Below, one piece after another: positions 4,534 to 25,295 of a stretch of 52,321 nucleotides of DNA. The notes below the pieces were generated by a model, which worked only from the letters and a program-made list of their open reading frames with translations, made no database searches and was not told where the DNA came from. Position numbers and translations under genes: made by a program. This stretch comes from Candidatus Scalinduaceae bacterium (GTDB taxonomy: Bacteria; Planctomycetota; Brocadiia; Brocadiales; Scalinduaceae), in the NCBI GenBank assembly GCA_046759445.1, contig JBHICG010000017.1, positions 1 through 52,321 of the forward strand. Direction: 5' to 3'. Position 1 is the first letter of the stretch. Every line of letters starts with the position of its first letter.

Positions 4534-5727
4534 ATGAATCTGGTACCAAAAGAATTATTCGAATATATGGTTTCTATACGCCGCCGTATACACAAACATC
4601 CAGAGCTTGCATACCAGGAAGAAAATACTGCAGCAATTATTATAGAAGAACTAAACAAACTTGGTATAGAAGCAAATACAGGAATCGGAAAGACTGGTGT
4701 AATAGGTCGCATTTGTTCATCACATAATGCGGATCCCGCAGTGGCGTTAAGAGCTGACATGGATGCATTAGCCATTAACGAGAAAACAGGTCTTGAATTT
4801 GCATCTGAAATAAATGGTGTAATGCATGCCTGTGGTCATGATGGACACATTGCAATGCTCCTGGGAGCAGCAACTTTACTAAAGGAATCAATCAAAACTG
4901 GAAGTGTATTACTCGTATTTCAGCCAGCAGAAGAAGGAGGCGGCGGAGCTCAAAAAATTATGGACTCAGGATTACTTGCCAAAGCAGATGCAATTTTTGC
5001 CTGTCATCTGGACAGACATTTTAAGGTCGGAGAGTTAGTTGTACAGCAAGGTCCTATTTCGGCATTTACAGATAGATTCGACATCAACGTAAAGGGTAAA
5101 GGTGGCCATGCGGCACAACCACACGATACAGTTGATGCCATCGTAATAGCCAGTCTAATCGTAATGACTTTGCAGACAATCGTATCCAGAGAAGTAAACC
5201 CTATCCATCCATCTATCATATCAGTTGGCAAAATAGAAGGAGGTTCGGTACCCAACGCCGTAGCAGATAGTGCCAGACTTTCAGGTACAATACGTACAAC
5301 TGAAACACACGTGCGAAAACAGATAAAAGCAGGAATTCAACGCATCGCCAATGCGGCAGGCACACTCCATAATGCAGACGTTAAGGTTGAGTTTATAGAG
5401 GGGTATCCGTCTGTAATTAATACCATTGAAGAATCAAAGATTGCCCGACAGGCAGTCATAAATGCTATCGGAGACGAGGCGCTCGTTGATACCCAATACG
5501 TAACTATGGGAGGTGAAGACTTTTCCTTTTATCTTGAAAAAATCCCAGGATGTCTTGTAAGGTTAGGAGCACAGAAGGTTGGTCTTGAAAATGTTCCCGC
5601 ACACAGCTCTACCTTCGATTTTGATGAAAATGCTCTTGGTATTGGCGCTGTTTTCCTTGCAGAAGTTGCAAAATTATCTATTGACCATCTGATAAAGAAA
5701 ACGGCTGGCTCATCTTCCACCAACTAG
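4534..5727 (+). CDS. M20 family amidohydrolase (M20D type)
   Basis: HPELAYQE, LRADMDAL, MHACGHDGH, FQPAEEG, GGHAA, GEDFS. Confidence 0.93.
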   Translation: MNLVPKELFEYMVSIRRRIHKHPELAYQEENTAAIIIEELNKLGIEANTGIGKTGVIGRICSSHNADPAVALRADMDALAINEKTGLEFASEINGVMHACGHDGHIAMLLGAATLLKESIKTGSVLLVFQPAEEGGGGAQKIMDSGLLAKADAIFACHLDRHFKVGELVVQQGPISAFTDRFDINVKGKGGHAAQPHDTVDAIVIASLIVMTLQTIVSREVNPIHPSIISVGKIEGGSVPNAVADSARLSGTIRTTETHVRKQIKAGIQRIANAAGTLHNADVKVEFIEGYPSVINTIEESKIARQAVINAIGDEALVDTQYVTMGGEDFSFYLEKIPGCLVRLGAQKVGLENVPAHSSTFDFDENALGIGAVFLAEVAKLSIDHLIKKTAGSSSTN

Positions 5728-7886
5728 GGAGTGATATCTTTGATATGAGAAAGAATTTTCAAAAACCCCTTACTTTGTGTGGCTAACTTGTCCAGTTCTC
5801 TTATATGTTCATCTCTCAATTCCAATGATAATATCTCTTCACTCAACTGACTATTATCCATATTACCTGCTCCATACAACTTATCAGCAATAGCAACCTT
5901 AGCCTCAGCAGACAGATCAGAATTGATTATGACACCTCTTAGATTGACGTCCTCTCTACTTTCATTAGCCACCGTTTTCTGAAACAACCTGTCTTCTTCA
6001 CTCAGCCTTCCGACCACTTCACCTATATCTATCGATAATACTTCGGCAGTACGCCCTGTGACTGCTAGAACGCCTCGTTTAAATCCTAGGGTATCCTCTT
6101 CACTGGCCATGTGGGAGATTGTTCCCTTCTGCTGTGTTGTTAAAGATAACATCTTATTCCGCCTAAGATAAGTAAGAGTATAATGAGTAAGTTTTCTGGA
6201 AGAATCTACAATGTGAATATCTTTGCCTAAAAAACGTCTCCAAATATCATGTACTGCTTGTTCGAATACACCGTAATGAGTGCAGCCCAGAATAAGGGTA
6301 TCAATATTTTTCTCTATTAGAGGACGTAAATTTGCCTCAAGGATGGCTATAGTTCTTTCGTTCAGCGCCTTAGAATCCATTCTGTCAAACTCTACCATAT
6401 CAACTATAGTAGCTAACAACGGTGTTACAACGCTAAATATCTTTGCTTCTGGATCCTGATTTTTTATTTCCCGTATGTAGGCACCACTCTCTATCGTAGC
6501 TTTTGTCGCGATAATTCCTATAATCCTTGTCTTTATTCCCTTCGTTTTTCCAAAGCTTAAGGCTGCCTTAACAGCAGGTTCAATGGGACCAAGAATAGGA
6601 ATGGAAAATTCCTTAACTACCGTGGCTCTAGCATTAGCATCCATTGTGTTACAAAGGAGAACGATCTTAGCGCCTAAGTTATAAGCAGCCTCTACATATA
6701 TCCTACAAAGTTGCTTAATCCTTTTAGACGAACTTCCTCCAAGCCGCTTTGATAATACGCTGATTAAGACAACATCCTCTCTATCAAGACCTTTCAGCTT
6801 TGATAAATTCTCTTGTCCAATTGCAGGTGCAACTCCTGTGTCTAGGACTACGATTTGTCCATTAGGTTTATAGTCCCTAAACGGAAGGTACATCACGGCA
6901 AGAAGTCTTTTGATGGCCAGTATATCTTTGGCAATGGATGGCACCACCCCATATTTCTCATCAATTCTTGACACTTGTTTCCTGTAATGTTTTCCAGCCT
7001 TCGATATTTTAGAGACTAGTTCCTTCATCGCAATCGCGCCTCTTTTTGTCGCTCTCCACTCCTTCAGCCACATTAGTGCAGCATCATGATAGGGAGTTGC
7101 GAGTATTATTGCTTTATCTTTATCCCTTTCTTTTGTCTTCTTTTCCTCTTCCATTTGGTCATGTACTTTATACAAAGTATCAAGTAACTCTTTATCCTTA
7201 GGTGCCAGTAGATGTTTTAAAAGTAATGTTTTCAGCGCTTCATCCTCTACCCAGTTTAGTATCTGCTCATCAGTAGTTACACCATCCGGTTCAGGCCAGA
7301 AACCATCAGGACTCATAATGCGGTATTTGGTAAGTCTGTAACCTATCTCCCTTGAGAGCCTTGCTATCTCAGTCTTTGTCATGTGAAGTTCTACTGTTTG
7401 GGTTTGTCCTCTATTTTTATTAACATCTATCAGAGCTACGGCACAGCCAGCTCCCCCTAACTTCACATTATGAAGAGCATGGTACAAACTCTTTTCCATA
7501 GCTAATATCTCCACTTCCTCAAGAACCAGCTTTTCCACAATATCCTTTACATCCTCCAAAGAAGTCTTTCCAATTCTTTTAGGAAGATAGACTTGCTTGA
7601 TAAACTTTAGGACGCCCTGTCCGGGACCAAATGCAAGATTATGCTGAACAAGGAAGAGTTTAATTGGTTTGGTATTACCATCATCCATATTCAGGTCGAT
7701 TGTGTCTATAAATCTCTGCCTTGGCTCTTCCAATTGCTCGAATAAATGATGATGTATATTGAAGAAATTTTTATCTCTCTCTTGGAGAACGAGCTTGACT
7801 TTGGCGATACGACGATGTATTTTCCTTAAGGTAGTTGGTTTCTTTCGTTTTTTGCTAATTTCATGCTTTATGTGATCTGATGACAT
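5724..7886 (-). CDS. Fusion of a degenerate Glu-dehydrogenase substrate/dimerisation domain and a glutamate racemase (MurI-like) domain
   Basis: N-terminal VQHNLAFGPGQG, LGGAGC and PEPDGVTT align to GDH motifs; C-terminal LDTG, LCNT, IGIIATKATIESGAY and LGCTHYG are racemase motifs. Confidence 0.8.
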   Translation of the reverse strand: MSSDHIKHEISKKRKKPTTLRKIHRRIAKVKLVLQERDKNFFNIHHHLFEQLEEPRQRFIDTIDLNMDDGNTKPIKLFLVQHNLAFGPGQGVLKFIKQVYLPKRIGKTSLEDVKDIVEKLVLEEVEILAMEKSLYHALHNVKLGGAGCAVALIDVNKNRGQTQTVELHMTKTEIARLSREIGYRLTKYRIMSPDGFWPEPDGVTTDEQILNWVEDEALKTLLLKHLLAPKDKELLDTLYKVHDQMEEEKKTKERDKDKAIILATPYHDAALMWLKEWRATKRGAIAMKELVSKISKAGKHYRKQVSRIDEKYGVVPSIAKDILAIKRLLAVMYLPFRDYKPNGQIVVLDTGVAPAIGQENLSKLKGLDREDVVLISVLSKRLGGSSSKRIKQLCRIYVEAAYNLGAKIVLLCNTMDANARATVVKEFSIPILGPIEPAVKAALSFGKTKGIKTRIIGIIATKATIESGAYIREIKNQDPEAKIFSVVTPLLATIVDMVEFDRMDSKALNERTIAILEANLRPLIEKNIDTLILGCTHYGVFEQAVHDIWRRFLGKDIHIVDSSRKLTHYTLTYLRRNKMLSLTTQQKGTISHMASEEDTLGFKRGVLAVTGRTAEVLSIDIGEVVGRLSEEDRLFQKTVANESREDVNLRGVIINSDLSAEAKVAIADKLYGAGNMDNSQLSEEILSLELRDEHIRELDKLATQSKGFLKILSHIKDITP

Positions 7887-8202
7887 CTCAACCTCTTACT
7901 AGATTACCACATATATAAATTATTGACCAAAGGGGGTTAATTTATAACCTTACTTGTTAATTGATACGCATGCAATAAAAATCAAAATATTCGATTACTA
8001 TCTAGAGCCCAACGCAACTTTATAAAACTATTGTGCCATATGTAAAGAATTCTTTTTGCTAAATTATATTTCACACGGTCATAATTTAAGCTTTTTTAAT
8101 AAAAGGCTGAAACCCTGGCGTGTCGCCAAGGCAGGACTATATTCCTGGGGACTTAAGGATTTTGCCTTTTATTTCATTGCTTTCCTGCAAGAACTTCATT
8201 AA

Positions 8203-8454
8203 GTAAATAGTCTAATTTTTAACAATGAGGAAAGAGCTGATACCGTTAGAAGAGTAGAATTAGAGTTTGTTGTATCAGACGATAAAGTTGAAAAGGTTAT
8301 AGAAACTATTAGGAGTGTTGCTGCAACTGATCAAGGAGGTGATGGACGAACATACATATCAACTTTGGACGTTTCAATCCTTATTCATTCAGGTGATAAA
8401 CATCTGGGGGACGACAGTGAAAAAGGTTTATTGACTGATAAATTTGACAAATAA
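8203..8454 (+). pseudogene. 5'-truncated relic of a P-II paralog (copy of the 22517-22900 type)
   Basis: Not in the ORF track; reads ERADTVRRVELEFVVSDDKVEKVIETIRSVAATDQGGDGRTYISTLDVSILIHSGDKHLGDDSE*; no ATG; in-frame stop at 8200-8202. Confidence 0.85.
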
Positions 8455-8465
8455 GATGATGGCGC

Positions 8466-11400
8466 TTAATTCATAATTGCTTTTCTTGCACGCTCTGGTA
8501 AGGCGGATATTGCCCTCAAGAGGTCATCATTCTCAGATTTGGCGTTAGCAAATGAGCTAAAAAGATTGATAGCTTCCGCATATATGTCATTTATAATTAC
8601 TCTGATATTTTCATCTGTAATCTTGCCGGTATTCAACACCTTTTCCAGATTCGATATCAAAACGACATCTGTCCAGTAATCTAGCGGTATTCGCTTCATC
8701 AAATCATTACTCAGATAAGTAAGATGATCACGCACGGTGTTGAGTAAATCGTCTGTCAAATCCCCCCTCCCCCCCTTTATTAAAGGGGGATTAGGGGGGA
8801 TTACCATCCGAACAACCTCTCTGGATAGCTCGGCAACAGCGACACGTCCTATTGCCATAATGGAAGCCGCTGTCCTCATTTCAATCTTTCGTTCCTGTGA
8901 AATCTTGATAATGTCATCAAAAATCGCGCAAATATTATCCTCAAGCATGCCATTAATTTTTTTTAAGTTCCAACGTTCGTTTCTGAGATTTTGCACCCAT
9001 TCAAGATAAGACACATAAACACCTCCCAGATTTGTGCTGATATCGGGTGTTATAAAAGCGCCTTTTCTTGTCACAATTTTATCACCATCAGGAGTGATAG
9101 GTCCATTTGCGCCTTCTACTATAATTTTGGCCTTTACGTTATACGCATTCCTGTCTATGGCATTCTCAAGCGCAGCGAGGATCAGGAAGTCAACATCCAG
9201 GGCGAAAATACCCTCGTTTGTAATATCCCTTCCCCCCTGAAATCCTTTCAATAAGCCTGTGCCTGACGTATTCACATGTTTAAATACCGCATCTATGTCC
9301 AGACCATTAGGGTTATAGATACCACCACTGGCATCCGTAATGGCTACCACCTTTACGCCTGCATCGTGTAAAAATTTTGCAGGCGGCCTGCCGACATTAC
9401 CAAATCCTTGTATGGCAGCGGTTGCGCCTTTCAGATTTATGTTTTTATATTTGGCCGCTTTTTTTAAGGCAATAAACACTCCGCGCCCGGTTGATTCAAC
9501 CCTGCCGAGAGAACCTCCTTTAACGTCTGGCTTGCCGGTAACAACGGCAAGCGCCTGGCATTTTATTTCTGTATGCTTTTTTAATATCTTTATACATTTA
9601 TCAAGATAAGGAGTATCCACAGAGGATTCAGAATGCCTGCAAATTGAACGGAAATCATCGGCGATTTCTTCGGTTAATACAGTATCATCAGTAAGCCAAT
9701 CTGATAGGTCTTCTTTTTCTATAGAAGTCTTCAGGTATTCGTCTACAAACCATGCCATCTTTGTGGCATTTGTGTTGACGTCAGGCGCAGGTATGTCAAG
9801 ATGTGGCCCACACGCATTTCTGTTCTTCAATTCTCGGCTGTATTCTCTGATTATCAATGCGTCTTTTCGATCAAGATAGTTTTTTGGGTTTACTATAATA
9901 CCACCTTTTGAACCTCCGTATGGAATTCCTGCAAGGGCGCATTTCCATGTCATCCAAATAGCAAGAGCCCTGACTTCATCAAGTGATACTTCAGGATGTT
10001 CTCTGAAACCTCCTTTGGCAGGGCCACGAGCTGAATTATGGTGTACACGATAAGCAACAAATTCATCTTCCGTAAGCCGCATGGCCTCTATCCGTTCGGG
10101 AGTAAGTAATTTTTGTTTCAGAAATAAAGGAAGCTTAAGGATGTCCGCAACCACGGCAAATTGACTTTCTGCCACTTCGAGTGGACTTGTCATGGCAACG
10201 GCATGCTCCCGTATCTTTGCATATTCCTTAAGGGTAACACTGGGTACGGAAAACAATTGGCTGACTCTCTCAAATTCACCAATTTCTTTTTTGTAGTTAA
10301 TAATATTCTTCGCTACGTTATGTTTAATGTTGAGGAATTTTTCTAATTCTTCAACATTTGCGGCATTAAGGTTTATTTTATCCTTTACGTAACCTTTTGG
10401 CTTAAAGCGTATTTTTGTAGGAAGGTCATCTAAATGGTTAAGCGCCGTCAGTTCCTCACCAGCAAGGAATTTCAAACACGTTTCTCCCATTGTAGAAAGG
10501 TACGTTCTTGGAGGAGGAGTTTTCGTGCCAAGCCTTTTTTGTGCTGCAGCAACACTATGAAGGCCAAAGATAATCTTAGATTCCGCTTCATAGGCAAATA
10601 CATGGTCTAAAATCTGATTCGTGCCCTGGCAAAACACTTCATCTTCATACTTCCCTGCAATTCCGTCTAGGATGATGGTTTTTGAATCCCGCATCTTTTT
10701 CTTTATAAGGGCAACAGTATCAGGGCCAATATCGTATGCCTTCATCTTAGCGAAACGGCCCTTAATTTTATTCACCTTAACTTTTTCGGGATTTAGTCCC
10801 GTCAGCTTTGCCATAAGGTGGTCAACGGGAAGCGTTATGTCCACACCATATCCTTTTGCCATTTCCAGTACTATTGTCGCATTACGGAGGGCCTGTGCTT
10901 GTAAATCAGGGTCTTCTTCAAGCATACAGTTATCCACGTCATATCCCTGAACCTTAAGGAATGGAAATGCAACACCGCCAATGATAATCAGTTTATCAAC
11001 TTTCTCATAAACTATAAGGTTATTCATTGCCTCAACCTTGGCTAAGACGGTGGCGCCGCCAATAATTGCAACTACAGGTTTGTAGGGATTCCTCATGAAA
11101 TTATCAAGTATACTCAGTTCCTGATTAAGCAGGAATCCGGCCACTTTCTGGCCTGAAATAAACCTTGTTATCGGCCCGAGTGATGCATGGTGGCCTATAT
11201 GGGCTGTTACTGGATCGGCATTTACATAGATATCACAGTTAGTAGTATCGTGGAGTTGTCTTGCAAACTCCATAACCTCATTATCGTCCTCTGAGGTCTC
11301 ACCGCTGCGGAACATGACATTTTCCAGCAGAAAGACACCATCACCGCTTACGATGGACTTTGTTTTTCCCCCAATGCAGTCATCAGTTATGATAACCTCC

Positions 11401-11798
11401 TTATCTTTTGAGAGAAGCTTTTTGTCCCTTAAGATCTCTGTCAGTCTTTCTGCTACTGGTCTCAGGCTGTATGTTGAGTAAATCTCTCCATCAGACAGAA
11501 CCCCCACAGAGGTCTTCTTATCCTTAAAGAAGTTCTCCCTTCCACCGTTGTGTGATATTATAACAATCGTCCTCGCTCCCTGCTTAAGAATATGGCGAAT
11601 GTCCATGACAGTCGCCCTGATACGCCTGTCGTCTATAATCTTACCATCCCTGACGATGTCGTAGTTTACCCTTAAGAAAACCCTTTTGCCTTCTAAGGCC
11701 GACTTATGAAGATTTCGTATAGGCATCTTATTGGCATAAGGGTACCACTCAAACCCCACATCAGCCTGCTTTGCAATTTTCACATCTAATATCTCCAT
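8466..11798 (-). CDS. Multidomain protein: degenerate phosphoglycerate kinase + ComEA-like HhH + glutamate dehydrogenase + C-terminal extension
   Basis: PGK-like GKRVFLRVNYD, DDRRIRA, LLEN, YDIGPDT; HhH-like KINLNAANVEEL...; GDH motifs RGPAKGG, MTWKCA, GGSKGG, DIPAPDVNT, VVTGKP, IQGFGNVG, EGANGP, SYLEWVQN. Confidence 0.9.
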   Translation of the reverse strand: MEILDVKIAKQADVGFEWYPYANKMPIRNLHKSALEGKRVFLRVNYDIVRDGKIIDDRRIRATVMDIRHILKQGARTIVIISHNGGRENFFKDKKTSVGVLSDGEIYSTYSLRPVAERLTEILRDKKLLSKDKEVIITDDCIGGKTKSIVSGDGVFLLENVMFRSGETSEDDNEVMEFARQLHDTTNCDIYVNADPVTAHIGHHASLGPITRFISGQKVAGFLLNQELSILDNFMRNPYKPVVAIIGGATVLAKVEAMNNLIVYEKVDKLIIIGGVAFPFLKVQGYDVDNCMLEEDPDLQAQALRNATIVLEMAKGYGVDITLPVDHLMAKLTGLNPEKVKVNKIKGRFAKMKAYDIGPDTVALIKKKMRDSKTIILDGIAGKYEDEVFCQGTNQILDHVFAYEAESKIIFGLHSVAAAQKRLGTKTPPPRTYLSTMGETCLKFLAGEELTALNHLDDLPTKIRFKPKGYVKDKINLNAANVEELEKFLNIKHNVAKNIINYKKEIGEFERVSQLFSVPSVTLKEYAKIREHAVAMTSPLEVAESQFAVVADILKLPLFLKQKLLTPERIEAMRLTEDEFVAYRVHHNSARGPAKGGFREHPEVSLDEVRALAIWMTWKCALAGIPYGGSKGGIIVNPKNYLDRKDALIIREYSRELKNRNACGPHLDIPAPDVNTNATKMAWFVDEYLKTSIEKEDLSDWLTDDTVLTEEIADDFRSICRHSESSVDTPYLDKCIKILKKHTEIKCQALAVVTGKPDVKGGSLGRVESTGRGVFIALKKAAKYKNINLKGATAAIQGFGNVGRPPAKFLHDAGVKVVAITDASGGIYNPNGLDIDAVFKHVNTSGTGLLKGFQGGRDITNEGIFALDVDFLILAALENAIDRNAYNVKAKIIVEGANGPITPDGDKIVTRKGAFITPDISTNLGGVYVSYLEWVQNLRNERWNLKKINGMLEDNICAIFDDIIKISQERKIEMRTAASIMAIGRVAVAELSREVVRMVIPPNPPLIKGGRGDLTDDLLNTVRDHLTYLSNDLMKRIPLDYWTDVVLISNLEKVLNTGKITDENIRVIINDIYAEAINLFSSFANAKSENDDLLRAISALPERARKAIMN
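8758..8803. repeat. Palindromic element inserted in frame in the GDH fusion
   Basis: aatcccccctcccccctttattaaagggggattagggggga; encodes IPPNPPLIKGGRGD on the minus strand. Confidence 0.8.
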
Positions 11799-11899: not shown

Positions 11900-12820
11900 T
11901 CAATTACCTTTAATTATACGCTCTGCAAGCTCAAATGGGAGCCCGGCTTTAAGGATTTTTGCCTTTACTGCCTCTGTATTATACTCTGATTTTTTAAGAG
12001 AAATTTTCTGTGTGTCGGTATCATAAATCATATAAGAGGCTTTAGGAGTGCCGTCTCGCGGTTGTCCAACCGAACCGGAGTTTATGTAGTAACGTTGGCC
12101 TGCATTCAATATAACATCGAATACTTCTAACCTTTCCATTGATTCCCTTTCAACCAGCATAAGCCTGTTATCGTATTGGTCTACAGGGATGAATACGGAA
12201 GCATTAACGTCTCTTTTTTGTTTTGTATATAGATATGCAGCTGGCTTATGAGTATGACCCGCAAAGGTTATGTTTGAATAGAGTAAATTATAATTTAAGG
12301 TTGCTGCATTTCTTAAATATAAATAACCCTGAGGGTAAGTAGGTGTGCTGTGGACTAATTCTATTCCATATTTTCTTATTTTTTTTCTAAGCCATAGGGA
12401 ATTCAGGAAACGGAAGTTTTCTTTTTGTAAGACTTTGGTCGTCCACTTTGCAGCGTTGCCTGCTGAAGAAACCATTACACTACATAACGAAGGCTGTCTA
12501 ATCACCTCTCTGTCATGATTTCCAGCAATTACTACAGCCTTTTTACCCATAGAAAGGATACAGTCAGTTATCTTCTTTTTAGATGTATCATTGATATTAA
12601 GCTCCTCTATAATTGCGCAAATTTCACTTTTCAAAGATGATTTGCCATTTTTCAGAAATTTTACGATAGTACAGCATTCGTTTGGGTTGGCGCCATAACC
12701 AACTATATCTCCCGGTATCAAAATTTTGTCTATCTGTTCATTATCTTCGTAAAGGGATAAAAAAACAGAGGCAAGCGCCTCCAGATTACTATGAATATCA
12801 GCAATGATTGCAAATTTCAT
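11900..12820 (-). CDS. Calcineurin-like metallophosphoesterase (YfcE/PPP-like)
   Basis: ADIHSN, GDIVGYG, GNHD, GHTH, NSGSVGQPRDG. Confidence 0.92.
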   Translation of the reverse strand: MKFAIIADIHSNLEALASVFLSLYEDNEQIDKILIPGDIVGYGANPNECCTIVKFLKNGKSSLKSEICAIIEELNINDTSKKKITDCILSMGKKAVVIAGNHDREVIRQPSLCSVMVSSAGNAAKWTTKVLQKENFRFLNSLWLRKKIRKYGIELVHSTPTYPQGYLYLRNAATLNYNLLYSNITFAGHTHKPAAYLYTKQKRDVNASVFIPVDQYDNRLMLVERESMERLEVFDVILNAGQRYYINSGSVGQPRDGTPKASYMIYDTDTQKISLKKSEYNTEAVKAKILKAGLPFELAERIIKGN

Positions 12821-12827: not shown

Positions 12828-13640
12828 TCACAATATTTTTTCTAATGTTTGTTTTAATTCTTTTGCCGTTGATATCCTGTTAGTTGGATCCTCTTCTAAT
12901 GTTGCCATTATGATATCTTCTAATTTTTGAGGGATTAATTCATTAAGTTTTCTTGGAGTGGTTTTTACTTCCTTCCATTTTTTATTGGTTAAGGTCTCAT
13001 AAATAACTGCGCCTAACGAATATATGTCCGACCTATCATCTAGGGATAGGAAGAATGCAATTGCTTCCGGAGGAACGCCTTCAGGTGGATTCCTTAAATC
13101 TTTTAACAAAGCTTCTTGTTCAGGCGAGGCATAATCTCTACTAATTCCTTTTATAAGTCCAGCTTTTTTTATTGCAAGTTCGTAATCAATTAAATAAACT
13201 GTGCATGTATTTGGTTTCAACATTAGGTGGCCAGGTTTAATATCGCAGTGTAAATAATTTTTTGAGTGTAAATAATCCAAAGGGTCACAAACACTTATAA
13301 AACATTTAATTATATCCTCTAATTGGTCGATAGAATTCTGGTTTGTTTTTTCTTTGAAATATCCAACAAAATCTATATTACTCATATGATCAAGTACGAT
13401 ATAATGTTGTGTGAGCACAAAATTTTCCCCTTTAAAAAGGGCATTTCGCCCATATTCATAAGCCCTAGGTATCTGCTTATGGTTTAATTGCAGTAATACG
13501 CAGTATTCATCTTCAAAGTCCAAGTTAGGGTTATATTTTATACCGAGCCGAGGGTCGTTATCTAAAACTGCATAGTTTGACTTATGCAAATCCGCATCAA
13601 CTTTGAATGAACTGAATATGTAATCCTTTATTTTGTACAT
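12828..13640 (-). CDS. Atypical Ser/Thr (Hanks-type) protein kinase, paralog 1
   Basis: HCDIKPGH, LIDYELA, YASPEQ, SDIYSLG; start placed at MYKIKDY (13640) by comparison with its paralog. Confidence 0.88.
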   Translation of the reverse strand: MYKIKDYIFSSFKVDADLHKSNYAVLDNDPRLGIKYNPNLDFEDEYCVLLQLNHKQIPRAYEYGRNALFKGENFVLTQHYIVLDHMSNIDFVGYFKEKTNQNSIDQLEDIIKCFISVCDPLDYLHSKNYLHCDIKPGHLMLKPNTCTVYLIDYELAIKKAGLIKGISRDYASPEQEALLKDLRNPPEGVPPEAIAFFLSLDDRSDIYSLGAVIYETLTNKKWKEVKTTPRKLNELIPQKLEDIIMATLEEDPTNRISTAKELKQTLEKIL

Positions 13641-15964: not shown

Positions 15965-16303
15965 ATGAAAAAGATAGAAGCTATCATACGTCCTGAGAAA
16001 TTTGATATTATTAAGGATGCACTGACAGAGAAAGGTTATGGTGGAATGTCTGTTACAGAGATAAAGGGACATGGCAATCAAAAAGGCGTAAGTGAAGTAT
16101 GGAGGGGAAAGAGGTATAAAGTAGATCTACTTCCAAAGGTAAAGCTTGAACTCATTGTTGCTGATGATGTCTGCGATGACGTAGTAAAGACTGTTATTTC
16201 AGAAGGTCAAACTGGTAGTATTGGAGATGGGAAGATATTCGTTTCAGACCTATCAAATGTTTACAGGATCCGTACCGGGGAACAAGGTGATTCAGCCATT
16301 TGA
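15965..16303 (+). CDS. glnK: P-II nitrogen regulator
   Basis: [35 protein letters not shown]; adjacent to amt. Confidence 0.95.
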
Positions 16304-16436: not shown

Positions 16437-16524
16437 ATTCTTATGAGCTTGTGATGTAATACGATTTTCTAGGTCTGATTTTAGAGACATTTTGCAGTTT
16501 TTAAATGTTCTGATAATGAAAGTA

Positions 16525-17907
16525 ATGATGAAAAAATGTATTATTTGGATATTGTTTCCAACTGTTATAGCTTGCGTGTTGTTTGCTGCCTTCCAAGACA
16601 CCGAAGCAAGTGAACCAGGAAGTGGTTTCATAATCCACTCAGAAATCAGAGATATAGAAGGGTTAAGGATATCTATTAACATTGCCTGGACGTTGTTATG
16701 TGGTTTCCTTGTCTTTAATATGCAGGCGGGTTTTGCGTTCCTGGGCTCAGGATTCTTGCGAAAGAAAAACACCTTAAACTATCTAACGATGAGTTTTATG
16801 GATTTTTGCGTTGGCGCCCTCATATTTTGGGCTTTTGGCTTTGCGTTAATGTATGGCGGCTCATCTGTTGCCTCAGGCCTTGACAAAGGAAATGCCCTTA
16901 TAGGTCTTAGTGGTTTTTTCCTGGCAGGCAATGCTTATAATGCTTCTACATCAGCTACATGGTTATTCCACATGATGTTTGTAGTTGCTACATGTACAAT
17001 TGTGGCAGGCGCTGTTGCTGAACGCTTTAAGTTCCATGCACACTTATTATACAGTATGATACTTTGTGGCTTCTTATACCCCATTTATGGTCACTGGGTA
17101 TGGGGTGGAGGTTGGTTGTCAAATCTTCCGTTCGGTTCTGGGATGAAGGATTTCGCAGGTGGAGGAGTGGTTCATGGTATAGGTGGAATTGTTTCTTTTA
17201 TAGGGGCATGGATGGTTGGCCCAAGGTTCGGCAAGTACAATCCTGACGGCACGCCAAACATCATTCATGGCCACAATCTCTCTTATATAGTACTTGGAAC
17301 ACTCTTTCTATTATTTGGTTGGTTCGGCTTCAATGTAGGAAGCACCTTGGCTGCCACTGATTTGAGGGTTTCAATCATTGCAACTAATATGTTCCTTTCT
17401 GCAATCACGGGGGCGATAACCCTTTTATACATTTCGTACATTAAAAACAAAAGATCTGACATTGTTATGGCATGTAATGGTGCTTTAGCAGGCTGTGTGG
17501 CTATTACGGCTTCCGGCGCTTATGTGCCCCATTGGGCTGCAGTGGTTATTGGCCTAACTGCAGGTTTCATATTAATGTCTTGCTTATATATTATGGAATA
17601 CAAATTAAGGATAGATGATCCCATCGGAGCTATTTCCGTTCATGGGGCAAATGGACTATGGAGCTTACTTTCTGTTGGTATCTTTGCCGATGGCTCCTAT
17701 TTGGGGGTAAGAGGACTGATAACAGGTTCTGGATGGCAACTTTTGTCACAGTTCATTGGATGTGTTACACTCATAGTTTGGACATTTTGCGCTGGTTATC
17801 TAATATTCCTGTTACTGAAGAAAACCATTGGTTTAAGAGTCCCTATCCAAGAAGAAAACGCTGGGATTGATTTATATGAACATGGGCTTTCTTGTTACTC
17901 TGACTGA
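16525..17907 (+). CDS. amt: Ammonium transporter (Amt)
   Basis: MQAGF, GAVAERF, DFAGGGVVH, WFGFNVGS, DDPIGAISVHG; start could be 16516, 16525 or 16528. Confidence 0.93.
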   Translation: MMKKCIIWILFPTVIACVLFAAFQDTEASEPGSGFIIHSEIRDIEGLRISINIAWTLLCGFLVFNMQAGFAFLGSGFLRKKNTLNYLTMSFMDFCVGALIFWAFGFALMYGGSSVASGLDKGNALIGLSGFFLAGNAYNASTSATWLFHMMFVVATCTIVAGAVAERFKFHAHLLYSMILCGFLYPIYGHWVWGGGWLSNLPFGSGMKDFAGGGVVHGIGGIVSFIGAWMVGPRFGKYNPDGTPNIIHGHNLSYIVLGTLFLLFGWFGFNVGSTLAATDLRVSIIATNMFLSAITGAITLLYISYIKNKRSDIVMACNGALAGCVAITASGAYVPHWAAVVIGLTAGFILMSCLYIMEYKLRIDDPIGAISVHGANGLWSLLSVGIFADGSYLGVRGLITGSGWQLLSQFIGCVTLIVWTFCAGYLIFLLLKKTIGLRVPIQEENAGIDLYEHGLSCYSD

Positions 17908-17934: not shown

Positions 17935-18199
17935 AGTGTAACAACAATGGAGGTAAAAGGTAACGGGAAGCAAAAAGTTGTTGAAGAAATATGGAGGAGG
18001 ACAAAGATACAAGGTCGAGATGTTACCAAAACTAAAGTTAGACCTGGTTGTTCCAGATGATGCTGTAGATAAAATAGTAAAGACAATAATAACTGAGGCA
18101 AAGACCGGTAGCGTTGGTGATGGCAAAATATTTGTGAGTGATGTAGATACTGCGTACAGAATTCGGACGGGTGAGGAAGGTGACGCTGCCATAACATGA
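17935..18199 (+). pseudogene. glnK: P-II (glnK) pseudogene with N-terminal deletion and a frameshift
   Basis: One frame gives SVTTMEVKGNGKQKVVEEIWR; an extra base near 17997 shifts to GQRYKVEMLPK...RIRTGE; the first ~27 aa are missing. Confidence 0.85.
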
Positions 18200-18678: not shown

Positions 18679-19488
18679 ATGTATAAGTTAGGAAAATATC
18701 AATTTGAAAGTTTTAAATACAGACCCGGTCACAGGGCAAATTATGCTGTTTTAACCAAACCCGGAAATAGAGAATGGGGAATGAAGTACTCACCTACTTA
18801 CACTTATGCCAGTGAGTATGATGTGCTGAAGAAATTTTCTCATCCACAGATTCCAAAACGATATGATTCCGGGCGGGAGGAATTATTTGAAAACGATAAA
18901 TTGGTATTGAGAGAACATTTCATCGTCTTACAACATTTTGAAGGCGAGGACATTGTAGAATATTACAAGCAGAAGGGTCTACCAGATTCTGATGAGATAG
19001 AAAATATTGTTAAATACTTTGCAAGTATCTCCGAACCTTTACAATATCTCCATTCTAAGGGATATGCTCATACTGACATTAAACCAGGTCATCTTATTGT
19101 TGACCCAGATACGGGAACAGTTGGCCTAATTGATTTGGAGCTAGCCATAAAAACAGGAGAACTTATAAAGGGTGTGACCATAGAATATGCGTCACCTGAA
19201 CAAAAGCAGATGAACAATTTATTGAAAGATGTCACAGACAGCAGGGGTGAAAAGGCCGTTTTAAAGCAGGTGAAGGTTAATGGAAGAGCTGATTTATACT
19301 CTATTGGGTTAATATTGTATGATGTATTAACGGGTAAATTACGGGCAAATACAAACAATCCTCTAATAGAAATTAATAAAGCAATTCCACAGAAATTGAA
19401 TGAAATAGTTTTGGGACTCCTTGAAGATGACCCGTCAAACAGGATATCTTCGGCAGAGGAACTTAAAGAGGAATTAGAGAACGTGTGA
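18679..19488 (+). CDS. Atypical Ser/Thr (Hanks-type) protein kinase, paralog 2
   Basis: HTDIKPGH, LIDLELA, YASPEQ, ADLYSIG; collinear with 12828-13640. Confidence 0.88.
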   Translation: MYKLGKYQFESFKYRPGHRANYAVLTKPGNREWGMKYSPTYTYASEYDVLKKFSHPQIPKRYDSGREELFENDKLVLREHFIVLQHFEGEDIVEYYKQKGLPDSDEIENIVKYFASISEPLQYLHSKGYAHTDIKPGHLIVDPDTGTVGLIDLELAIKTGELIKGVTIEYASPEQKQMNNLLKDVTDSRGEKAVLKQVKVNGRADLYSIGLILYDVLTGKLRANTNNPLIEINKAIPQKLNEIVLGLLEDDPSNRISSAEELKEELENV

Positions 19489-19703: not shown

Positions 19704-20216
19704 ATGACTCTAGATAAAATAAATGCGGTTATTAATAACATAGAAAAGCTCAAAATGATAATCAGAGACCCAGAACAATTTCTTATAAATAAATATTATA
19801 ATTTAGGGGCCCCAAATGGATTTCGTATAGAACTCCTCACCGCAAGGAAATACAATCTAATTTGTGATAAACTTAAACAGTTTCACTTTGCACATTTTGA
19901 AACGACAGATAGTTGGTTAGAAAAAGAAAAAATGATAAACATGATTCCTGTCAAAAGAATAAGGGAAGTTGTTGCAAGCCATTCATTGGCAAAAAAACCA
20001 AAAAAACTTTTTTGCCCGTACTGTGAAAAATCTGTCATTCCAAAGCGGCTTCATAAATTGGATTTAGTGGATATTGTCCTTTTTCTAATCACTGGAGGTA
20101 TATGGGCAATCTTACTTTTTACGATATATATCTTCATAAGGAGATGCCCTGTTTGCAATTATAACATGAGAGGATTTAAGCCTCTTTCTGAAAACAAAAA
20201 GATAATAGATAATTGA
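19704..20216 (+). CDS. Hypothetical membrane protein with a split Zn-ribbon (LITAF-like layout)
   Basis: CPYC, a hydrophobic hairpin, then CPVC. Confidence 0.7.
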   Translation: MTLDKINAVINNIEKLKMIIRDPEQFLINKYYNLGAPNGFRIELLTARKYNLICDKLKQFHFAHFETTDSWLEKEKMINMIPVKRIREVVASHSLAKKPKKLFCPYCEKSVIPKRLHKLDLVDIVLFLITGGIWAILLFTIYIFIRRCPVCNYNMRGFKPLSENKKIIDN

Positions 20217-20444: not shown

Positions 20445-21791
20445 TTATCTCCTCAGCGTGCTTACGGATTCTAATTGTAGATGATAAGCAATCTCACCAT
20501 GTTGAGTGATATCGAGTCCCTTCTCTTCCTCTTCTTCCGTCGTCCTTAATCCTACAGTATACTTGACAATTAATACAATAATAATACATACGGCAACAGT
20601 AAATGCCCACGTAGCTAAAATACCCACACACTGCTTACCTAGCTGGGTGAGTCCTACCATATCCCAACCAATGAAAAATCCATACACTCCACTACCTTTA
20701 CCTGTTACTAATTCAGTGGCATAGAGCCCAGCGGCAAATGTACCGATCGTTCCACCAATAGCGTGTACTCCAACAACGTCCAGGGCATCATCAAAACCAA
20801 AAAGGGGTTTTAACTTAGTAACAGCAAAGTAGCAACCCACCCCGGCCATAATTCCAATTTGAACCGCACCCAGAGGGCCGACGAAGCCACTGGCAGGTGT
20901 TATGGTTGCTAATCCTGCAATTGCGCCCGTAAGTGCGCCCAGAAATGTTGGTTTCCCTGTAATTAACCATTCGCATACTATCCATACGAATGCAGCAGTA
21001 GCGGCAGAGGTATTAGTCGCCATAAATGCAAACGCAGCCCTACCATCAGCAGCAAGTGCGCTACCACCATTAAAACCAAACCAACCAAACCATAATAAAC
21101 CTGCTCCTAGACACACCATTGGAAGGTTGCAGGGCGGTGTTATATTTTTTCTCTTACGCGGCCCCAGCATCACGGCTAACGTAAGCGCGCCTGCTCCACA
21201 GCATACGTGCACAACCAGCCCACCTGCATAGTCCAAAATGCCCCAGTTGCCCATCCAACCACCACCCCATTGCCAATGACATATTGGATCGTACACAGCG
21301 GTTGCAAAAAGTGGTGCAAAGAGTAACATTGCGCTAAATTTCATACGACCCTCAACTGCCCCCAATACCAGGGCTACTGTGATAACGGCAAACATACACT
21401 GAAATATCATAAAGGTATACTCAGGTATGGTGTTGGCTATTTCCGAAATGGAATCAGGAGTTATACCACGCAAGCCAGTTTTAGCAAGACCTCCAATAAA
21501 ACCTCCATAATCAATACCAAAGGACAGTGTATAACCCCAGAAAATCCATTGAACACTTATGATAGAAATACACATAAAACACATCATGAGCATATTGACT
21601 ATATTTTTTACAGAACATAAACCTCCGTAAAACAAACAGAGGCCAGGAGTCATGAGGAGAACAAGCGCTGCTGAGGCGAGGATCCACGCATTGTCACCTT
21701 TATCAAGAGTACCCTCGTTTGCCCATGCCATAGAAGATGTTGTCACCATAAAGACAAATATTAAAATCGTTAAATAACCAATTTTTTTCAT
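20445..21791 (-). CDS. amtB: Ammonium transporter AmtB (canonical)
   Basis: LMTPGLCLFYGG, FQCMFA, DYAGGLVVH, WFGFNGGS, DDALDVVGVH. Confidence 0.96.
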   Translation of the reverse strand: MKKIGYLTILIFVFMVTTSSMAWANEGTLDKGDNAWILASAALVLLMTPGLCLFYGGLCSVKNIVNMLMMCFMCISIISVQWIFWGYTLSFGIDYGGFIGGLAKTGLRGITPDSISEIANTIPEYTFMIFQCMFAVITVALVLGAVEGRMKFSAMLLFAPLFATAVYDPICHWQWGGGWMGNWGILDYAGGLVVHVCCGAGALTLAVMLGPRKRKNITPPCNLPMVCLGAGLLWFGWFGFNGGSALAADGRAAFAFMATNTSAATAAFVWIVCEWLITGKPTFLGALTGAIAGLATITPASGFVGPLGAVQIGIMAGVGCYFAVTKLKPLFGFDDALDVVGVHAIGGTIGTFAAGLYATELVTGKGSGVYGFFIGWDMVGLTQLGKQCVGILATWAFTVAVCIIIVLIVKYTVGLRTTEEEEEKGLDITQHGEIAYHLQLESVSTLRR

Positions 21792-21879: not shown

Positions 21880-22230
<351 letters not shown>

Positions 22231-22264: not shown

Positions 22265-22280
22265 AGCATATCGTGTGCCT
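22265..22280 (-). promoter_or_regulatory. Putative sigma54 promoter of glnK-amtB
   Basis: Minus strand AGGCACACGATATGCT, GG-N10-GC, ~47 nt upstream of the glnK ATG. Confidence 0.7.
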
Positions 22281-22516: not shown

Positions 22517-22900
22517 TTATTCACTCGAAATATCATTAGATAAGTCTTCTTCACTGGAATCGCCCAAATGTTTATCGCCAGAACTAATATGTATTGCATC
22601 GTCCAGAGTCGATATGTATATTCGACCATCACCTCCCTTACCAGTTGCTACAACCTTCCTAATAGTTTCTACAACCTTTTCGACTTTATTGTCTGATGCA
22701 ACAAATTCTAATTCTGACCTTTTAACGGCATCTACACTCTCCTCATAAACATTTCCTCGATATACCTGTTTAGTTGTTATTTTAGACTCTCCATATCCTA
22801 AGCCTTCTTTCGTCGTAATCCCATGAAACCCTAATTTATGTAATGCATCTTTCAATTCTATGGTTTTTTCAGGTCTTAAAATAACTTTGATAAGTTTCAC
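22517..22900 (-). CDS. Divergent P-II family protein with acidic C-terminal extension
   Basis: MKLIKVILRPEK, GYGES, VYRG, TGKGGDGRIYI; RIRTGE replaced by HISSGD. Confidence 0.88.
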   Translation of the reverse strand: MKLIKVILRPEKTIELKDALHKLGFHGITTKEGLGYGESKITTKQVYRGNVYEESVDAVKRSELEFVASDNKVEKVVETIRKVVATGKGGDGRIYISTLDDAIHISSGDKHLGDSSEEDLSNDISSE

Positions 22901-23450
22901 AATAAATCACCTTCCTTTCTGTTATTGATATAATACTTAACAAAGTCTGGAACTGTATTTTTTTAGCTATTCTAATCCTTCTTCCATGTACGGTCACAAA
23001 GTGAGAAAGCAATACGGACTAAAAGTCCTTGATTAAATGAGTTTTCGCCAGAATGGCGTCGAGGATTCATATAAGAAAGCGTCACGGATTTCAGCCCGTG
23101 AATATCTACCGTTATGGTTAAGGAGGAACATTCTGTAAGCCGTTTGGGCAGCTCAGGATTATAAGTAAAATCTAAAAGGTTAGAATAAAGATACCCGATT
23201 GTCTATGTATCAAATCCTACATCCCCTCAGGATGGACGAGGATGCTACCAAAGGCCTCGCCACAGCAAATCTTGCCCAAAGGGACACGACATTCCTTTAT
23301 CGAGCTGTGAGATAAGCTGTGCCATTTGGCCTCGCTGAATGAGTAAACATTCAACCGTAATAGATAGCAAAGTGGCGAAGCTAATTCAGCTTTATTGAGT
23401 TGATAGGCAGCGCTCTGCGCATCATACAAAGAAATAATATCTCGCAGCTA

Positions 23451-23477
23451 GATAAGTGGCGCTCCGCGCCACTTATC
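23451..23477. repeat. Perfect 12-bp hairpin, preceded by a degenerate copy at 23401-23428
   Basis: gataagtggcgc-tcc-gcgccacttatc. Confidence 0.7.
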
Positions 23478-23689
23478 ATACAAGCTAACGACTCACTCTT
23501 ACACTACAAAAACTATTCCTGTCTACGACATGCCATTGGCCTGACAGTTTTAAGGAATTTTGGTAACTACACCAAATAACTAAATAAACTTTTAGAACCT
23601 CAGCCGATTAGCCAAGATGACCTTGACTTGACAGCGGGCACCTAAATAAACCCTATATGCGCTTATGTAAGCATTGCGTAGCAACGCCT

Positions 23690-25078
23690 CTATGCATTTT
23701 CCTGAACCGGATAACATGAGGTACCATGAATGTGTATATCCAGGCCTCCCTTCTCAACATCTTCCGACACTCTCATCTTTGAATTATTCTTTTTACCGCC
23801 AATCAATGTGAATATTATATAAGCTAAACCACCAGCCCATACAAATGCGACGACACATGCAATAGCTTGCGAAAATAACTGCCCGTAATGCCCCGTTATT
23901 ACGCCAGAAACACCACCATACGAACCATCAGCAAAAATACCTATTGCGATCAACCCCCAAAAGCCATTTGATCCATGAACTGAGCATGCACCAAGTGGAT
24001 CGTCAACTTTTAATTTGTTTGCAATAAACCATACAGAAAACAAATATAATATGGACCCTAAGAATCCTATCAAAACTGCAGCCCAGGGCGCTACATAGGC
24101 ACACGGAGCGGAAATAGCGACCAGGCCAGCCAGAGCTCCATTACACGCCTCACCAACATCGGTCTTACCTTTCAGCAGGTAAGTAAGAAAAAGCACCGAA
24201 ACAGCCCCAATTGAACCAGAAAGGCATGTATTTGCAGCTATTACAGACATTCTCAAGTCCCCTGCAGCCAGGGTGCTTCCTGCATCGTAACCCAACCAAC
24301 CAAATGCAAGGAGTATCGTTCCAAGAATCATATAGCCTACATTATGGCCCGGTATATCGTTTATTGTGCCATCCTCATTGTATCTTCCGGCTCTTGGCCC
24401 CAGAAAACATGCGCCAACGAAACCAATTGTGCCTCCAATTGCATGTACTACACCTGACCCGGCAAAATCCCTTACGCCTGCGCCATATGGAAGATTCCAT
24501 AACCATCCTTCTCCCCATATCCAATGACCATATACAGGATAGATAAATATATACACAAAGAGAAACATCAGTACGTAGGAACAAAGTTTCATTCTCTCGG
24601 CAATGGCGCCAGCAATTATACTACCTATAAACGTTGCTATAACAGCCTGAAACATAAATAATAATATCACTCTAACGTCATAAGCTTCACCTAATAGCAA
24701 AAAACCACTCAAACCCATGAATGAATTACCTTTTCCCACATGCTGTCCTAGAAACTCAAACCCTCCAAACATCACCCCGAAACCTACAAACCAGTATATG
24801 ACTACACCAAGCGTTGTAGCGATAAAACAATGGGTCATGTAACTCAACATATTCTTTGCTGGAAGCAATCCTCCAAGCAATGCAAAACCCACCTGCATGA
24901 ACCATATCATAAAGCCAGTCAGCAGAATCCATGTAAAGTTATTAGATAAATTTATACCTCTAAGGTCTAATGCGAAGGTGCTTTCACCACTAGGATCTGC
25001 TGCTTCCGAAATACCGAACAATGCAAAAACTGTAATAACAGCAATTAATAAATAAATTAAAATATTTTTAAAATGCAT
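23690..25078 (-). CDS. amt: Ammonium transporter (Amt), non-canonical gate; close paralog of 14301-15860 without the tail
   Basis: FMQVGF, FQAVIATF, DFAGSGVVH, WLGYDAGS, DDPLGACSVHG. Confidence 0.95.
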   Translation of the reverse strand: MHFKNILIYLLIAVITVFALFGISEAADPSGESTFALDLRGINLSNNFTWILLTGFMIWFMQVGFALLGGLLPAKNMLSYMTHCFIATTLGVVIYWFVGFGVMFGGFEFLGQHVGKGNSFMGLSGFLLLGEAYDVRVILLFMFQAVIATFIGSIIAGAIAERMKLCSYVLMFLFVYIFIYPVYGHWIWGEGWLWNLPYGAGVRDFAGSGVVHAIGGTIGFVGACFLGPRAGRYNEDGTINDIPGHNVGYMILGTILLAFGWLGYDAGSTLAAGDLRMSVIAANTCLSGSIGAVSVLFLTYLLKGKTDVGEACNGALAGLVAISAPCAYVAPWAAVLIGFLGSILYLFSVWFIANKLKVDDPLGACSVHGSNGFWGLIAIGIFADGSYGGVSGVITGHYGQLFSQAIACVVAFVWAGGLAYIIFTLIGGKKNNSKMRVSEDVEKGGLDIHIHGTSCYPVQENA

Positions 25079-25279
25079 ACATTCCTCTCCTTTCTAAGTT
25101 ATATAAGTCCGATAAGAAATAAAATTAATGAAAATGCTTTGTGGTGTGAACGTATTTTCAGGTTTGTAATTGTATTAGGATGGTGCATATCAGGTAACAA
25201 ATAATGTATAAAGAATCCTCAGCAATATCTAAGCTTTTTAAATATGCAAAGAAAATCTAATATCTAAACCTTCAGTATG

Positions 25280-25295
25280 CGCAATGGATATACCA
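25280..25295 (-). promoter_or_regulatory. Putative sigma54 promoter of amt 23690-25078
   Basis: Minus strand TGGTATATCCATTGCG matches TGGYAY-N5-TTGC. Confidence 0.65.

Follow-up and report, generated by a model that had tools for sequence, protein, structure and literature searches.

Our analysis of a 52,321-nt contig from a Candidatus Scalinduaceae bacterium (JBHICG010000017.1, assembly GCA_046759445.1; we call this whole stretch the window) indicates that the region at 5724..25295 is composite, a core at 11900-25078 being joined to a part derived from glutamate dehydrogenase (GDH) at 5724-11798. We put a probability of roughly 70% on what we consider the best explanation of this arrangement, namely that the core is an anammox supercluster for ammonium uptake and sensing, that it contains a lineage-specific signalling module of two kinases and a metallophosphoesterase (MPE), and that the two glutamate-enzyme fusions encoded beside it are passengers. 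From left to right the core consists of the MPE gene and the kinase gene kinA on the minus strand, then amt1, PII1, amt2, a second kinase gene (kinB) and hyp170 on the plus strand, and finally amt3, PII2, PII3 and amt4 on the minus strand, where amt and PII stand for genes of ammonium transporters (Amt) and P-II proteins. The host is a marine anammox bacterium of the Scalindua family, represented by a metagenome-assembled genome (3.6 Mb, 97% complete) that encodes hydrazine synthase and whose closest proteins and loci are named, for example, Candidatus Scalindua. Genes were called from a listing of open reading frames (ORFs) together with Pfam and NCBIfam scans, 40 window ORFs being scanned. 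Four of the five amt matches and three of the four intact P-II genes of this genome fall within 11 kb, a clustering that is far from chance.

We compared the core with 20 loci around kinase homologues in 18 related genomes, and with 65 public loci obtained by a pattern-based scan of 185,579 species genomes; the loci in both sets represent related lineages, and their counts are not those of independent trials. In 16 of the 18 related genomes, across three families, kinA and MPE adjoin amt1 and PII1. The full order, in which MPE and kinA diverge from amt1, PII1, amt2, kinB and hyp170 and these are followed on the opposite strand by amt3 and PII2 (with or without amt4), is that of most Scalinduaceae and of both genomes of another family, f3. 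The 65 public loci are nearly all titled as anammox bacteria (Scalindua, Anammoxibacter, Brocadia, Kuenenia, Wunengus), and among those that could be tested MPE follows kinA in 41 of 43, one exception being a mere 445-bp gap, while in 31 of 39 an amt gene diverges from kinA at a distance of no more than 1.5 kb. For kinB the same-strand upstream gene is an amt in 17 of 28 testable loci and MPE in 3 of 28, and hyp170 stands after kinB in 18 of 32. Moreover, several genomes (loci L076, L077, L086, L088, L089 and L132) carry the kinA-MPE pair inverted, so that all seven genes are co-directional, and yet the adjacency is kept. The combined kinase/MPE and amt/P-II order thus ranges over the Scalinduaceae, a second family with Anammoxibacter-titled records and part of a third that includes Kuenenia-titled records. 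When all window ORFs are compared with relatives, the shared gene order ends just past MPE; no window gene to the left of MPE, those at 1-3994 included, was found beside the cluster in relatives. On the right, the flank of amt4, MazG and ExbD is common to three relatives. The first-pass annotation had connected the kinases and the phosphoesterase with the amt and P-II genes, and this link is supported by conserved synteny across three families, synteny being its sole basis.

That annotation had also listed four amt genes, three intact P-II genes, two P-II relics, two paralogous kinases, a phosphoesterase and two GDH-derived fusions, every one of which was recovered at or near its assigned place with Pfam, NCBIfam and tblastn. 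All four transporters are clear family members, with 334-384 bits for PF00909 (cut-off 23.2) and 362-431 bits for TIGR00836 (cut-off 343.3). They are amt1 (14301..15860, plus strand, 519 aa with a C-terminal tail of about 60 aa; PF00909 E 1e-99, TIGR00836 above cut-off), amt2 (16492..17907, plus strand, 471 aa; PF00909 E 1e-112, TIGR00836 400 bits), amt3 (20445..21791, minus strand, 448 aa; PF00909 E 7e-115) and amt4 (23690..25078, minus strand, 462 aa; PF00909 E 1e-100). The three intact P-II proteins score 72-108 bits for PF00543 (cut-off 25), and their alignment displays a T-loop together with the GDG(K/R)I motif of the nucleotide-binding loop. PII1 (15965..16303, plus strand, PF00543) and PII2 (21880..22218, minus strand, PF00543 E 3e-31) are GlnK-type proteins of 112 aa each, and PII3 (22517..22900, minus strand, 127 aa, PF00543 E 8e-20) is a divergent P-II whose T-loop is longer and whose C-terminal tail is acidic; its location varies among relatives (it differs in L062, L063, L064 and L068).

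Both P-II relics fall short of the P-II family by truncation. The one at 17938..18196 (plus strand), detected by tblastn with the three P-II proteins and by translation, is an N-truncated pseudogene in which roughly 25 residues are gone from the N-terminus and the reading frame shifts near residue 47; an intact P-II gene stands at this position in a single Anammoxibacter-type locus, L067 (= L105). The other, at 8227..8439 (plus strand), is a 5'-truncated pseudogene of the PII3 type, with 69% tblastn identity to PII3 residues 53-123, a PF00543 match to positions 49-98 only and a stop codon directly upstream in translation, and it marks a rearranged junction. Elsewhere in the same genome, contig C15 holds the fourth intact P-II gene (49898-50215) and a fifth Amt domain (444-1616) within a 669-aa open frame, which is long enough to make it a candidate for a fused signalling domain, as in the Amt-histidine kinase sensor of Kuenenia.

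The transporter and P-II part of the cluster has been published. The Scalindua profunda paper reports four amtB and two glnK genes in one cluster (scal00587-00596), and the fosmid table of its supplement lists kinase and "phosphoserine phosphatase" genes (scal00593, 00597-00599) in the order found here. For Kuenenia stuttgartiensis a paper describes a cluster amt_1-nrp1-(hyp)-amt_2-nrp2-amt_3 (KSMBR1_2627-2632), flanked by kinase, phosphatase and kinase genes (KSMBR1_2624-2626), in which amt_1, nrp1 and nrp2 are up under ammonium limitation (PMC7438415); our amt1 occupies the place of amt_1. The supplement to that paper gives 937 versus 80 RPKM (reads per kilobase per million) for amt_1 under ammonium limitation, and 58.6/19.9, 38.0/6.1 and 21.9/9.4 RPKM for the adjacent kinase, phosphatase and kinase genes, a 2- to 6-fold rise. 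It also shows a rise of about 20-fold (411 versus 20 RPKM) for KSMBR1_2629, the hypothetical gene between nrp_1 and amt_2, at the position of which the window has a 189-bp gap only. Both published clusters thus agree with ours in gene content and order, with flanking kinase, phosphatase and kinase genes, and differ from it in that the window adds a third, divergent P-II gene, two P-II fragments and two GDH-derived fusions at the left edge. The earlier statement that no such system had been described therefore fails for the amt/P-II cluster and stands for the kinases and the phosphatase, which the accessible parts of these publications carry as annotations only. Indeed, in searches that left subscription journals outside their reach, we found no discussion of the kinases or the phosphoesterase in the available parts of the Kuenenia or S. 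profunda papers or elsewhere, annotation tables aside. Most likely, then, the amt/P-II cluster is the known part, and the kinase/MPE module is an undescribed, lineage-specific one.

The two kinases are small and unusual. KinA (12828..13640, minus strand, PF00069) is a minimal, atypical Hanks-type kinase of 270 aa whose ORF reaches 13772, and its paralogue KinB (18679..19488, plus strand, Pkinase domain), 44% identical to it, has 269 aa in an ORF that begins at 18664; the starts at 13640 and 18679 were set by the orthologues. In an alignment of 21 sequences K36, E46, H131xD133xK135 (HxDxKPGH), D152xE154 (DxE for DFG), an SPE motif and later Asp and Arg positions are invariant; we take K36, E46, D133 and D152 to be the beta-3 Lys, the alpha-C Glu, the catalytic Asp and the metal-binding Asp. 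Pfam kinase matches begin at profile position 44-46. An AF2 model of KinB has a pLDDT of 93.4, and its best folds are PknB kinase domains at TM 0.74-0.78; among the fold matches listed (TM 0.68-0.78) the first 17 are PknB kinase domains and PDK1 ranks 18th. Our kinases therefore share with PknB-type Hanks kinases the fold and the catalytic Lys, Glu, Asp and Asp. They differ from them in being a bare domain of some 270 aa that is devoid of Gly-rich loop, sensor and membrane part, with HxD..H where HRD..N is usual and DxE for DFG. Among 261 sequence relatives, every named one of the best 120 belongs to an anammox lineage, which suggests that the range of kinA is essentially anammox only.

MPE (11900..12820, minus strand, 306 aa; PF00149, PF12850) lies 7 bp downstream of kinA and is a calcineurin-like metallophosphoesterase whose metal motifs DxH, GD, GNHD, H and GHTH are invariant in 15 orthologues. 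Its closest solved structure is 3rqz, an uncharacterised MPE (E 5e-32), followed by SapH (an Ap4A hydrolase/phosphodiesterase) and YfcE. Set against the PPP phosphatase signature GDxHG / GDxVDRG / GNHE, the protein reads DxH, GD, GNHD and GHTH, and its best matches are of the YfcE and SapH types together with 3rqz, so that the published labels of its homologues, "Ser/Thr phosphatase 2" and "phosphoserine phosphatase" ("pphB" in Kuenenia), do not appear secured. A second MPE paralogue, about 63% identical, adjoins kinA-MPE in many genomes of one Scalinduaceae genus (L074, L075, L076, L077 and others); in agreement with this, the S. profunda table has two "phosphoserine phosphatase" genes. One Scalinduaceae locus (L064, G004:C1:130000-149999) has a reduced cluster, with MPE in two fragments and amt2, kinB, hyp170, amt3 and PII2 missing; an MPE paralogue lies elsewhere on its chromosome. 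The last member of the module, hyp170 (19704..20216, plus strand), encodes a small membrane protein whose sequence runs CxxC, hydrophobic stretch, CxxC, with no Pfam or NCBIfam hit; a LITAF-like zinc ribbon is a lead only, and its atlas leads lie below the bar of that resource.

How might such a module act? On our preferred reading, 11900-25078 is the ammonium-uptake and ammonium-sensing supercluster of most anammox bacteria, with four Amt paralogues and three P-II proteins, and embedded in it is a lineage-specific module composed of kinA, kinB, the kinA-coupled MPE and the small membrane protein, a putative zinc ribbon, after kinB. The kinases would be active. Together with MPE they would subject the Amt/P-II machinery to a reversible control, covalent or nucleotide-dependent, or else relay its state onward. 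Such control would work as that of Npr1 or CIPK23 on Mep2 or AMT1, or as that of GlnD on GlnK, with P-II, Amt or something else as the target. In eukaryotes kinase control of Amt/Mep proteins is familiar, Npr1 acting on Mep2 and CIPK23 on AMT1; we know of no bacterial example of a kinase that controls an ammonium transporter. The putative likeness would lie in a soluble Ser/Thr kinase having an ammonium transporter as its target. The difference is that Npr1 and CIPK23 are homologous to KinA and KinB in the kinase fold alone. In its boldest form, in which the stripped-down Hanks-type kinase pair and MPE of most anammox bacteria reversibly modify GlnK-type P-II or Amt, fill the role of GlnD and mirror Npr1 and CIPK23, we regard the proposal as a tentative and rather unlikely one.

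Several observations weigh against the reading as a whole. The functional link of kinases and MPE to Amt and P-II is drawn from gene order alone. Eight of the 39 testable loci have no divergent amt gene; these are mainly Brocadia-titled, with kinA-MPE unlinked from amt. Because kinA-MPE is unlinked from amt in Brocadia-titled loci and kinB there comes after a dCache-PAS sensor gene, the module may be a general signalling device rather than an Amt-specific one. The kinases have no Gly-rich GxGxxG loop (residues 1-35), and their catalytic-loop Asn is replaced by His; they could be pseudokinases or non-canonical transferases. The nearest characterised relative of MPE is an Ap4A hydrolase/phosphodiesterase, PP5-type protein phosphatases ranking only 20th in a comparison that used a mediocre model (pLDDT 69). 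The P-II T-loops hold no distinctive acceptor residue. Finally, in the Kuenenia data the changes of the kinase, phosphatase and kinase genes are non-significant (padj 0.24, 0.22 and NA; PMC7438415).

A narrower alternative is that KinA and MPE are the modifying and demodifying pair for anammox P-II, acting in place of GlnD by phosphorylation or nucleotidylation of the T-loop. The earlier claim that the window is free of GS, GOGAT, GlnD and NtrBC agrees with our scans, which detected none of these domains in the 40 ORFs, and in the genome as a whole (97% complete) the best TIGR01693 match, confined to the HD region, reaches 56.7 bits where the cut-off is 519. Among 40 relatives, all 7 members of family f2 encode a full-length GlnD, and GlnD was found in 0 of the 33 genomes of the other families, 32 of which have the kinase; family f2, which is anammox too (hydrazine synthase in 6 of 7), has neither the kinase (0/7) nor MPE (0/7). 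We first gave this complementarity more weight than it can bear. It is weak evidence, because it amounts to a single clade split and because 121 of 151 sampled Planctomycetota lack GlnD too, which makes its absence the norm in the phylum.

Also in favour of the KinA-MPE pair as P-II modifiers are the position of kinA-MPE, either divergent from or in line with amt1-glnK, the phosphodiesterase-like character of MPE, which would fit removal of a nucleotidyl group, and the Tyr at position 51 of the T-loop (present in PII1), which is kept in most P-II copies. On the other side, one P-II2 group has Phe at position 51, and our search for a special phospho-acceptor in the T-loop gave no distinctive residue, position 50 being Ser here and mostly Gln in orthologues. 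Moreover, in Brocadia-titled loci no P-II gene lies near kinA-MPE; the small ORFs that precede kinA there, considered as hidden P-II genes, gave weak matches to membrane-protein families and not to P-II. Cyanobacteria, which have no GlnD, phosphorylate P-II at Ser49 and dephosphorylate it with PphA, a PP2C enzyme. The parallel is that P-II would be phosphorylated rather than uridylylated in an organism without GlnD; the anammox case differs in having a metallophosphoesterase instead of a PP2C enzyme, and anammox P-II T-loops have no Ser at position 49. In the E. coli paradigm of glnK-amtB with uridylylation by GlnD, as summarised in PMC7438415, Amt genes are likewise paired with GlnK-type P-II proteins with the T-loop Tyr51; the window differs in that four transporters are present, GlnD was not found and the locus carries Ser/Thr-type kinases and a metallophosphoesterase. 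The same paper raises the question of how P-II could regulate these transporters at all. On balance we consider it unlikely that KinA and MPE form such a pair.

The loci of other families point in a different direction. In 3 of 3 inspected there (L106:5255-7942, L099:1978-4656 and L109:5261-7930), kinB begins 59-70 bp after the gene of a membrane protein of about 890 aa with dCache, HAMP and four PAS domains and no output domain. This arrangement suggests that the kinases serve as outputs for membrane sensors, and the two proteins may form a split sensor kinase. In two of these loci an aconitase gene comes next after kinB, and in the third one extra gene lies between. Applied to Scalinduaceae, this idea would make amt2 the ammonium receptor that signals to KinB, with Hyp170 as a membrane anchor, the dCache-HAMP-PAS protein taking the receptor role elsewhere, and the same-strand order amt2-kinB-hyp170 in the counts given above agrees with it. 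Amt proteins coupled to signalling enzymes are moreover established in anammox and other bacteria, examples being Ks-Amt5 (Amt-histidine kinase) and Sd-Amt1 (Amt-HAMP-GGDEF) (PMC5764959, PMC11152129), and the frame on contig C15 is a candidate for such a fusion in the present genome. The likeness to these sensors lies in an Amt coupled to a signalling enzyme within the same bacterial group, the difference in a separate Hanks-type kinase in place of a fused histidine kinase or cyclase. Against the idea, amt2 scores as an ordinary transporter, only three sensor loci are at hand, and the LITAF-like reading of Hyp170 is a mere lead. We regard a sensor-output role as possible, if on the improbable side.

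It could also be that the genes of the kinases and of MPE are unrelated to nitrogen, and are either a functionless inherited gene order or defence-type kinases. The kinases do match the kinase models of PD-T4-6, MkoA and mad6 (E 1e-20 to 1e-24), Brocadia-titled loci split the kinases from amt, and expression is low in both published data sets. However, the PADLOC matches are confined to the generic kinase core, for which reason we rejected a defence-system reading of the kinases. The adjacency to amt outlasts the kinA-MPE inversion and spans three families, and defence genes are, as a matter of general knowledge, usually variable rather than fixed beside housekeeping transporters. We consider a role unrelated to nitrogen quite unlikely.

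We turn now to the part of the region at 5724-11798. The first-pass annotation had treated the whole 20 kb as one island, in which P-II and reversible phosphorylation relay the ammonium status to a heteromeric complex of the two GDH-derived fusions, and had described a minus-strand run of kinase, phosphoesterase, PGK-HhH-GDH and pseudoGDH-racemase genes. Of this run the kinA-MPE part is tight (7-bp gap) and the remainder is spaced, with 101 bp between MPE and the PGK-GDH fusion and 580 bp between that fusion and the pseudoGDH-racemase gene, a gap that contains the P-II fragment on the opposite strand.

The fusion of a PGK-like, a helix-hairpin-helix (HhH) and a GDH part (8466..11798, minus strand, 1110 aa) carries PGK, HHH_3, ELFV_N and ELFV domains. 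Its PGK-like half matches the phosphoglycerate kinase of T. maritima (1vpe) at E 8e-52 and its GDH half the hexameric GDH of the same organism (2tmg) at E 6e-103. The GDH half keeps PxKGG, GGxKGG, the catalytic PK, PDV and GxGNVG, and carries an insert of about 60 aa and a C-terminal tail of about 115 aa. In the PGK-like half the motifs are replaced: ENLRF reads ENVMF, AHR reads AH(I/M), GGAKV reads GGA(T/N)V, GGGD reads GLHS and STGGG reads STMGE, changes present in 11 of 12 fusion sequences or nearly so, with one sequence retaining both Arg. The residues replaced across the family include the 3-PG-binding R122 and R170 and the catalytic K215. A canonical PGK that retains all those residues is encoded separately in the same genome. 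The earlier reading of a PGK part thus survives as a domain match and not as a set of canonical PGK residues; the domain is degenerate by its sequence and does not qualify as a PGK, and the fusion probably works as a regulated GDH rather than as a phosphoglycerate kinase. It resembles hexameric GDH and PGK in that its halves match both, with GDH motifs intact, and differs from GDH, from PGK and from the known PGK-TIM fusion in the order PGK-HhH-GDH, the replaced PGK residues, the 60-aa insert and the 115-aa tail. Among 50 hits the architecture occurs only in Scalindua-type proteins, 37 hits having all four domains and 3 more being partial; the gene is present in 21 of 24 Scalinduaceae and in one sister-family genome, and none of the 15 genomes from three other families has it. 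Our literature searches, limited as above, returned nothing on a PGK-GDH fusion. A match at L133 (35% identical) was rejected as a fusion, since it covers the PGK-like half only (query residues 24-461) and belongs to a stand-alone pgk-type gene some 4.4 kb away from kinB.

The second fusion (5724..7886, minus strand, 720 aa; PF02812 or ELFV_N, PF01177 or Asp_Glu_race) joins a pseudo-GDH (pGDH) N-domain to a glutamate racemase domain. The racemase domain keeps both catalytic Cys motifs (CNT and GCTHY) and scores 101-104 bits for TIGR00067, below the cut-off of 146.65. The pGDH N-domain has lost the GDH lysine motifs, PxKGG having become PGQG and GGxKGG having become GGAG or GGAS. The protein is the only racemase homologue in the genome and is probably the MurI of the cell. 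Its gene is present in 21 of 24 Scalinduaceae. In another anammox family a 940-aa frame (G037:C1:1166031-1166738) matches residues 13-243 of the pGDH N-domain with 31% identity, so that dead GDH domains may be fused to other partners outside the Scalinduaceae.

Are these two genes members of the cluster? In 16 relatives, two of them of the same genus, we examined the surroundings of the PGK-GDH fusion over 13.5-20 kb. None of the 16 has a tblastn match (E <= 1e-3) there to the other 13 proteins, and blastn matches the fusion gene alone. The synteny search for this fusion and its neighbours, suggested earlier as a check on the island, hence comes out negative, 0 of 16 relatives having any cluster gene beside it. 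The neighbours at six of these loci are unrelated to nitrogen, being UbiD in three and HSP20/DnaJ, phosphoglucomutase, epimerase and a transposase-like gene in the others. The pGDH-racemase gene adjoins the cluster, next to amt4, in 3 of 12 other Scalinduaceae cluster loci, all of one other genus, and by this count it is not a conserved cluster member. The two fusion genes occur together in 18 of 24 Scalinduaceae genomes, where chance predicts 18.4.

These counts tell against the relay of ammonium status to a heteromeric GDH complex, as does the similarity of the pGDH N-domain, which is greater to canonical GDH (E 1.7e-12) than to the GDH of the fusion (E 4.7e-4). Moreover, a sister-family genome (G028) has the PGK-GDH fusion without the racemase fusion, and three anammox families carry the kinase/MPE/amt module without either. 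What speaks for a single island is that all its parts are adjacent here across a junction that contigs span (see below), that the pGDH-racemase gene adjoins the cluster in the three genomes just mentioned and that both fusion proteins belong to the same family-level lineage. A weak alignment also hints at an insertion common to both proteins after ELFV_N, but with MAFFT and BLAST at E 2e-4 only it is too weak to use. We therefore judge the island very improbable, and its relay to a heteromeric GDH complex falls with it.

Most likely both GDH-derived fusions are passengers. On this preferred reading a lineage-specific rearrangement would have placed the two Scalinduaceae-specific fusions beside the cluster, the first being a catalytically intact GDH of the hexamer type, judged from its motifs, with degenerate PGK-like and HhH domains at its N-terminus and probably regulated, and the second the sole racemase homologue with a dead GDH N-domain. 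Two points sit awkwardly with the passenger label: the pGDH-racemase gene stands beside the cluster in two configurations, the one here and that of the three genomes of another genus, and both fusions deal with glutamate, which ammonium assimilation yields.

The junction between MPE and the PGK-GDH fusion is real. Contigs of X1, a possible source run, span 11611-12917 and 5500-9529, and in X3, an RNA library of a different study, a 678-base contig spans 11370-12047 with 4 differences. In the source-sample runs X1 and X2 another contig matches from 11866 towards MPE and differs before that point, which gives an alternative junction between MPE and the fusion, and therefore a co-occurring strain without the fusion at that junction. 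Similar loose ends lie at 8757-8789, within the 3' end of the fusion gene.

Regulatory signals added little. The window has 21 matches to the sigma-54 consensus with at most 2 mismatches, where 21.15 are expected, and the site at 22265-22280 upstream of PII2 was set aside as not conserved, a looser pattern matching in 1 of 12 relatives at a different distance. A shared operator was sought in the kinA-amt1 spacer, where AT-rich and ribosome-binding-like words alone recur, in at most 9 of 14 loci, and a promoter and terminator scan of 7700-14400 gave counts near those of shuffles (25 versus 21.2 and 8 versus 4.8) and was uninformative. Two RNA-library runs contain pieces of nearly every gene, which is compatible with expression and no proof of it; gaps between RNA-library contigs (for example 16788-18115 in X3) carry no meaning, and contig depth cannot rank the genes. 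At the left end of the contig, positions 1-3994 encode a partial N6/N4 DNA methylase, a family-B DNA polymerase (743 aa) and a histidine phosphatase.

The two fusions matter less for the biology of these organisms, as family-specific variants of GDH and MurI in which dead enzyme domains are likely regulatory parts; they also illustrate that the gene neighbourhood of one genome can mislead. For anammox bacteria, ammonium is fuel and nitrogen source alike. A kinase/MPE module fixed beside amt-glnK in three anammox families thus offers concrete candidates for how ammonium entry is controlled, and if its target were P-II or Amt, this would be the first bacterial case in which a Ser/Thr kinase controls ammonium transport.

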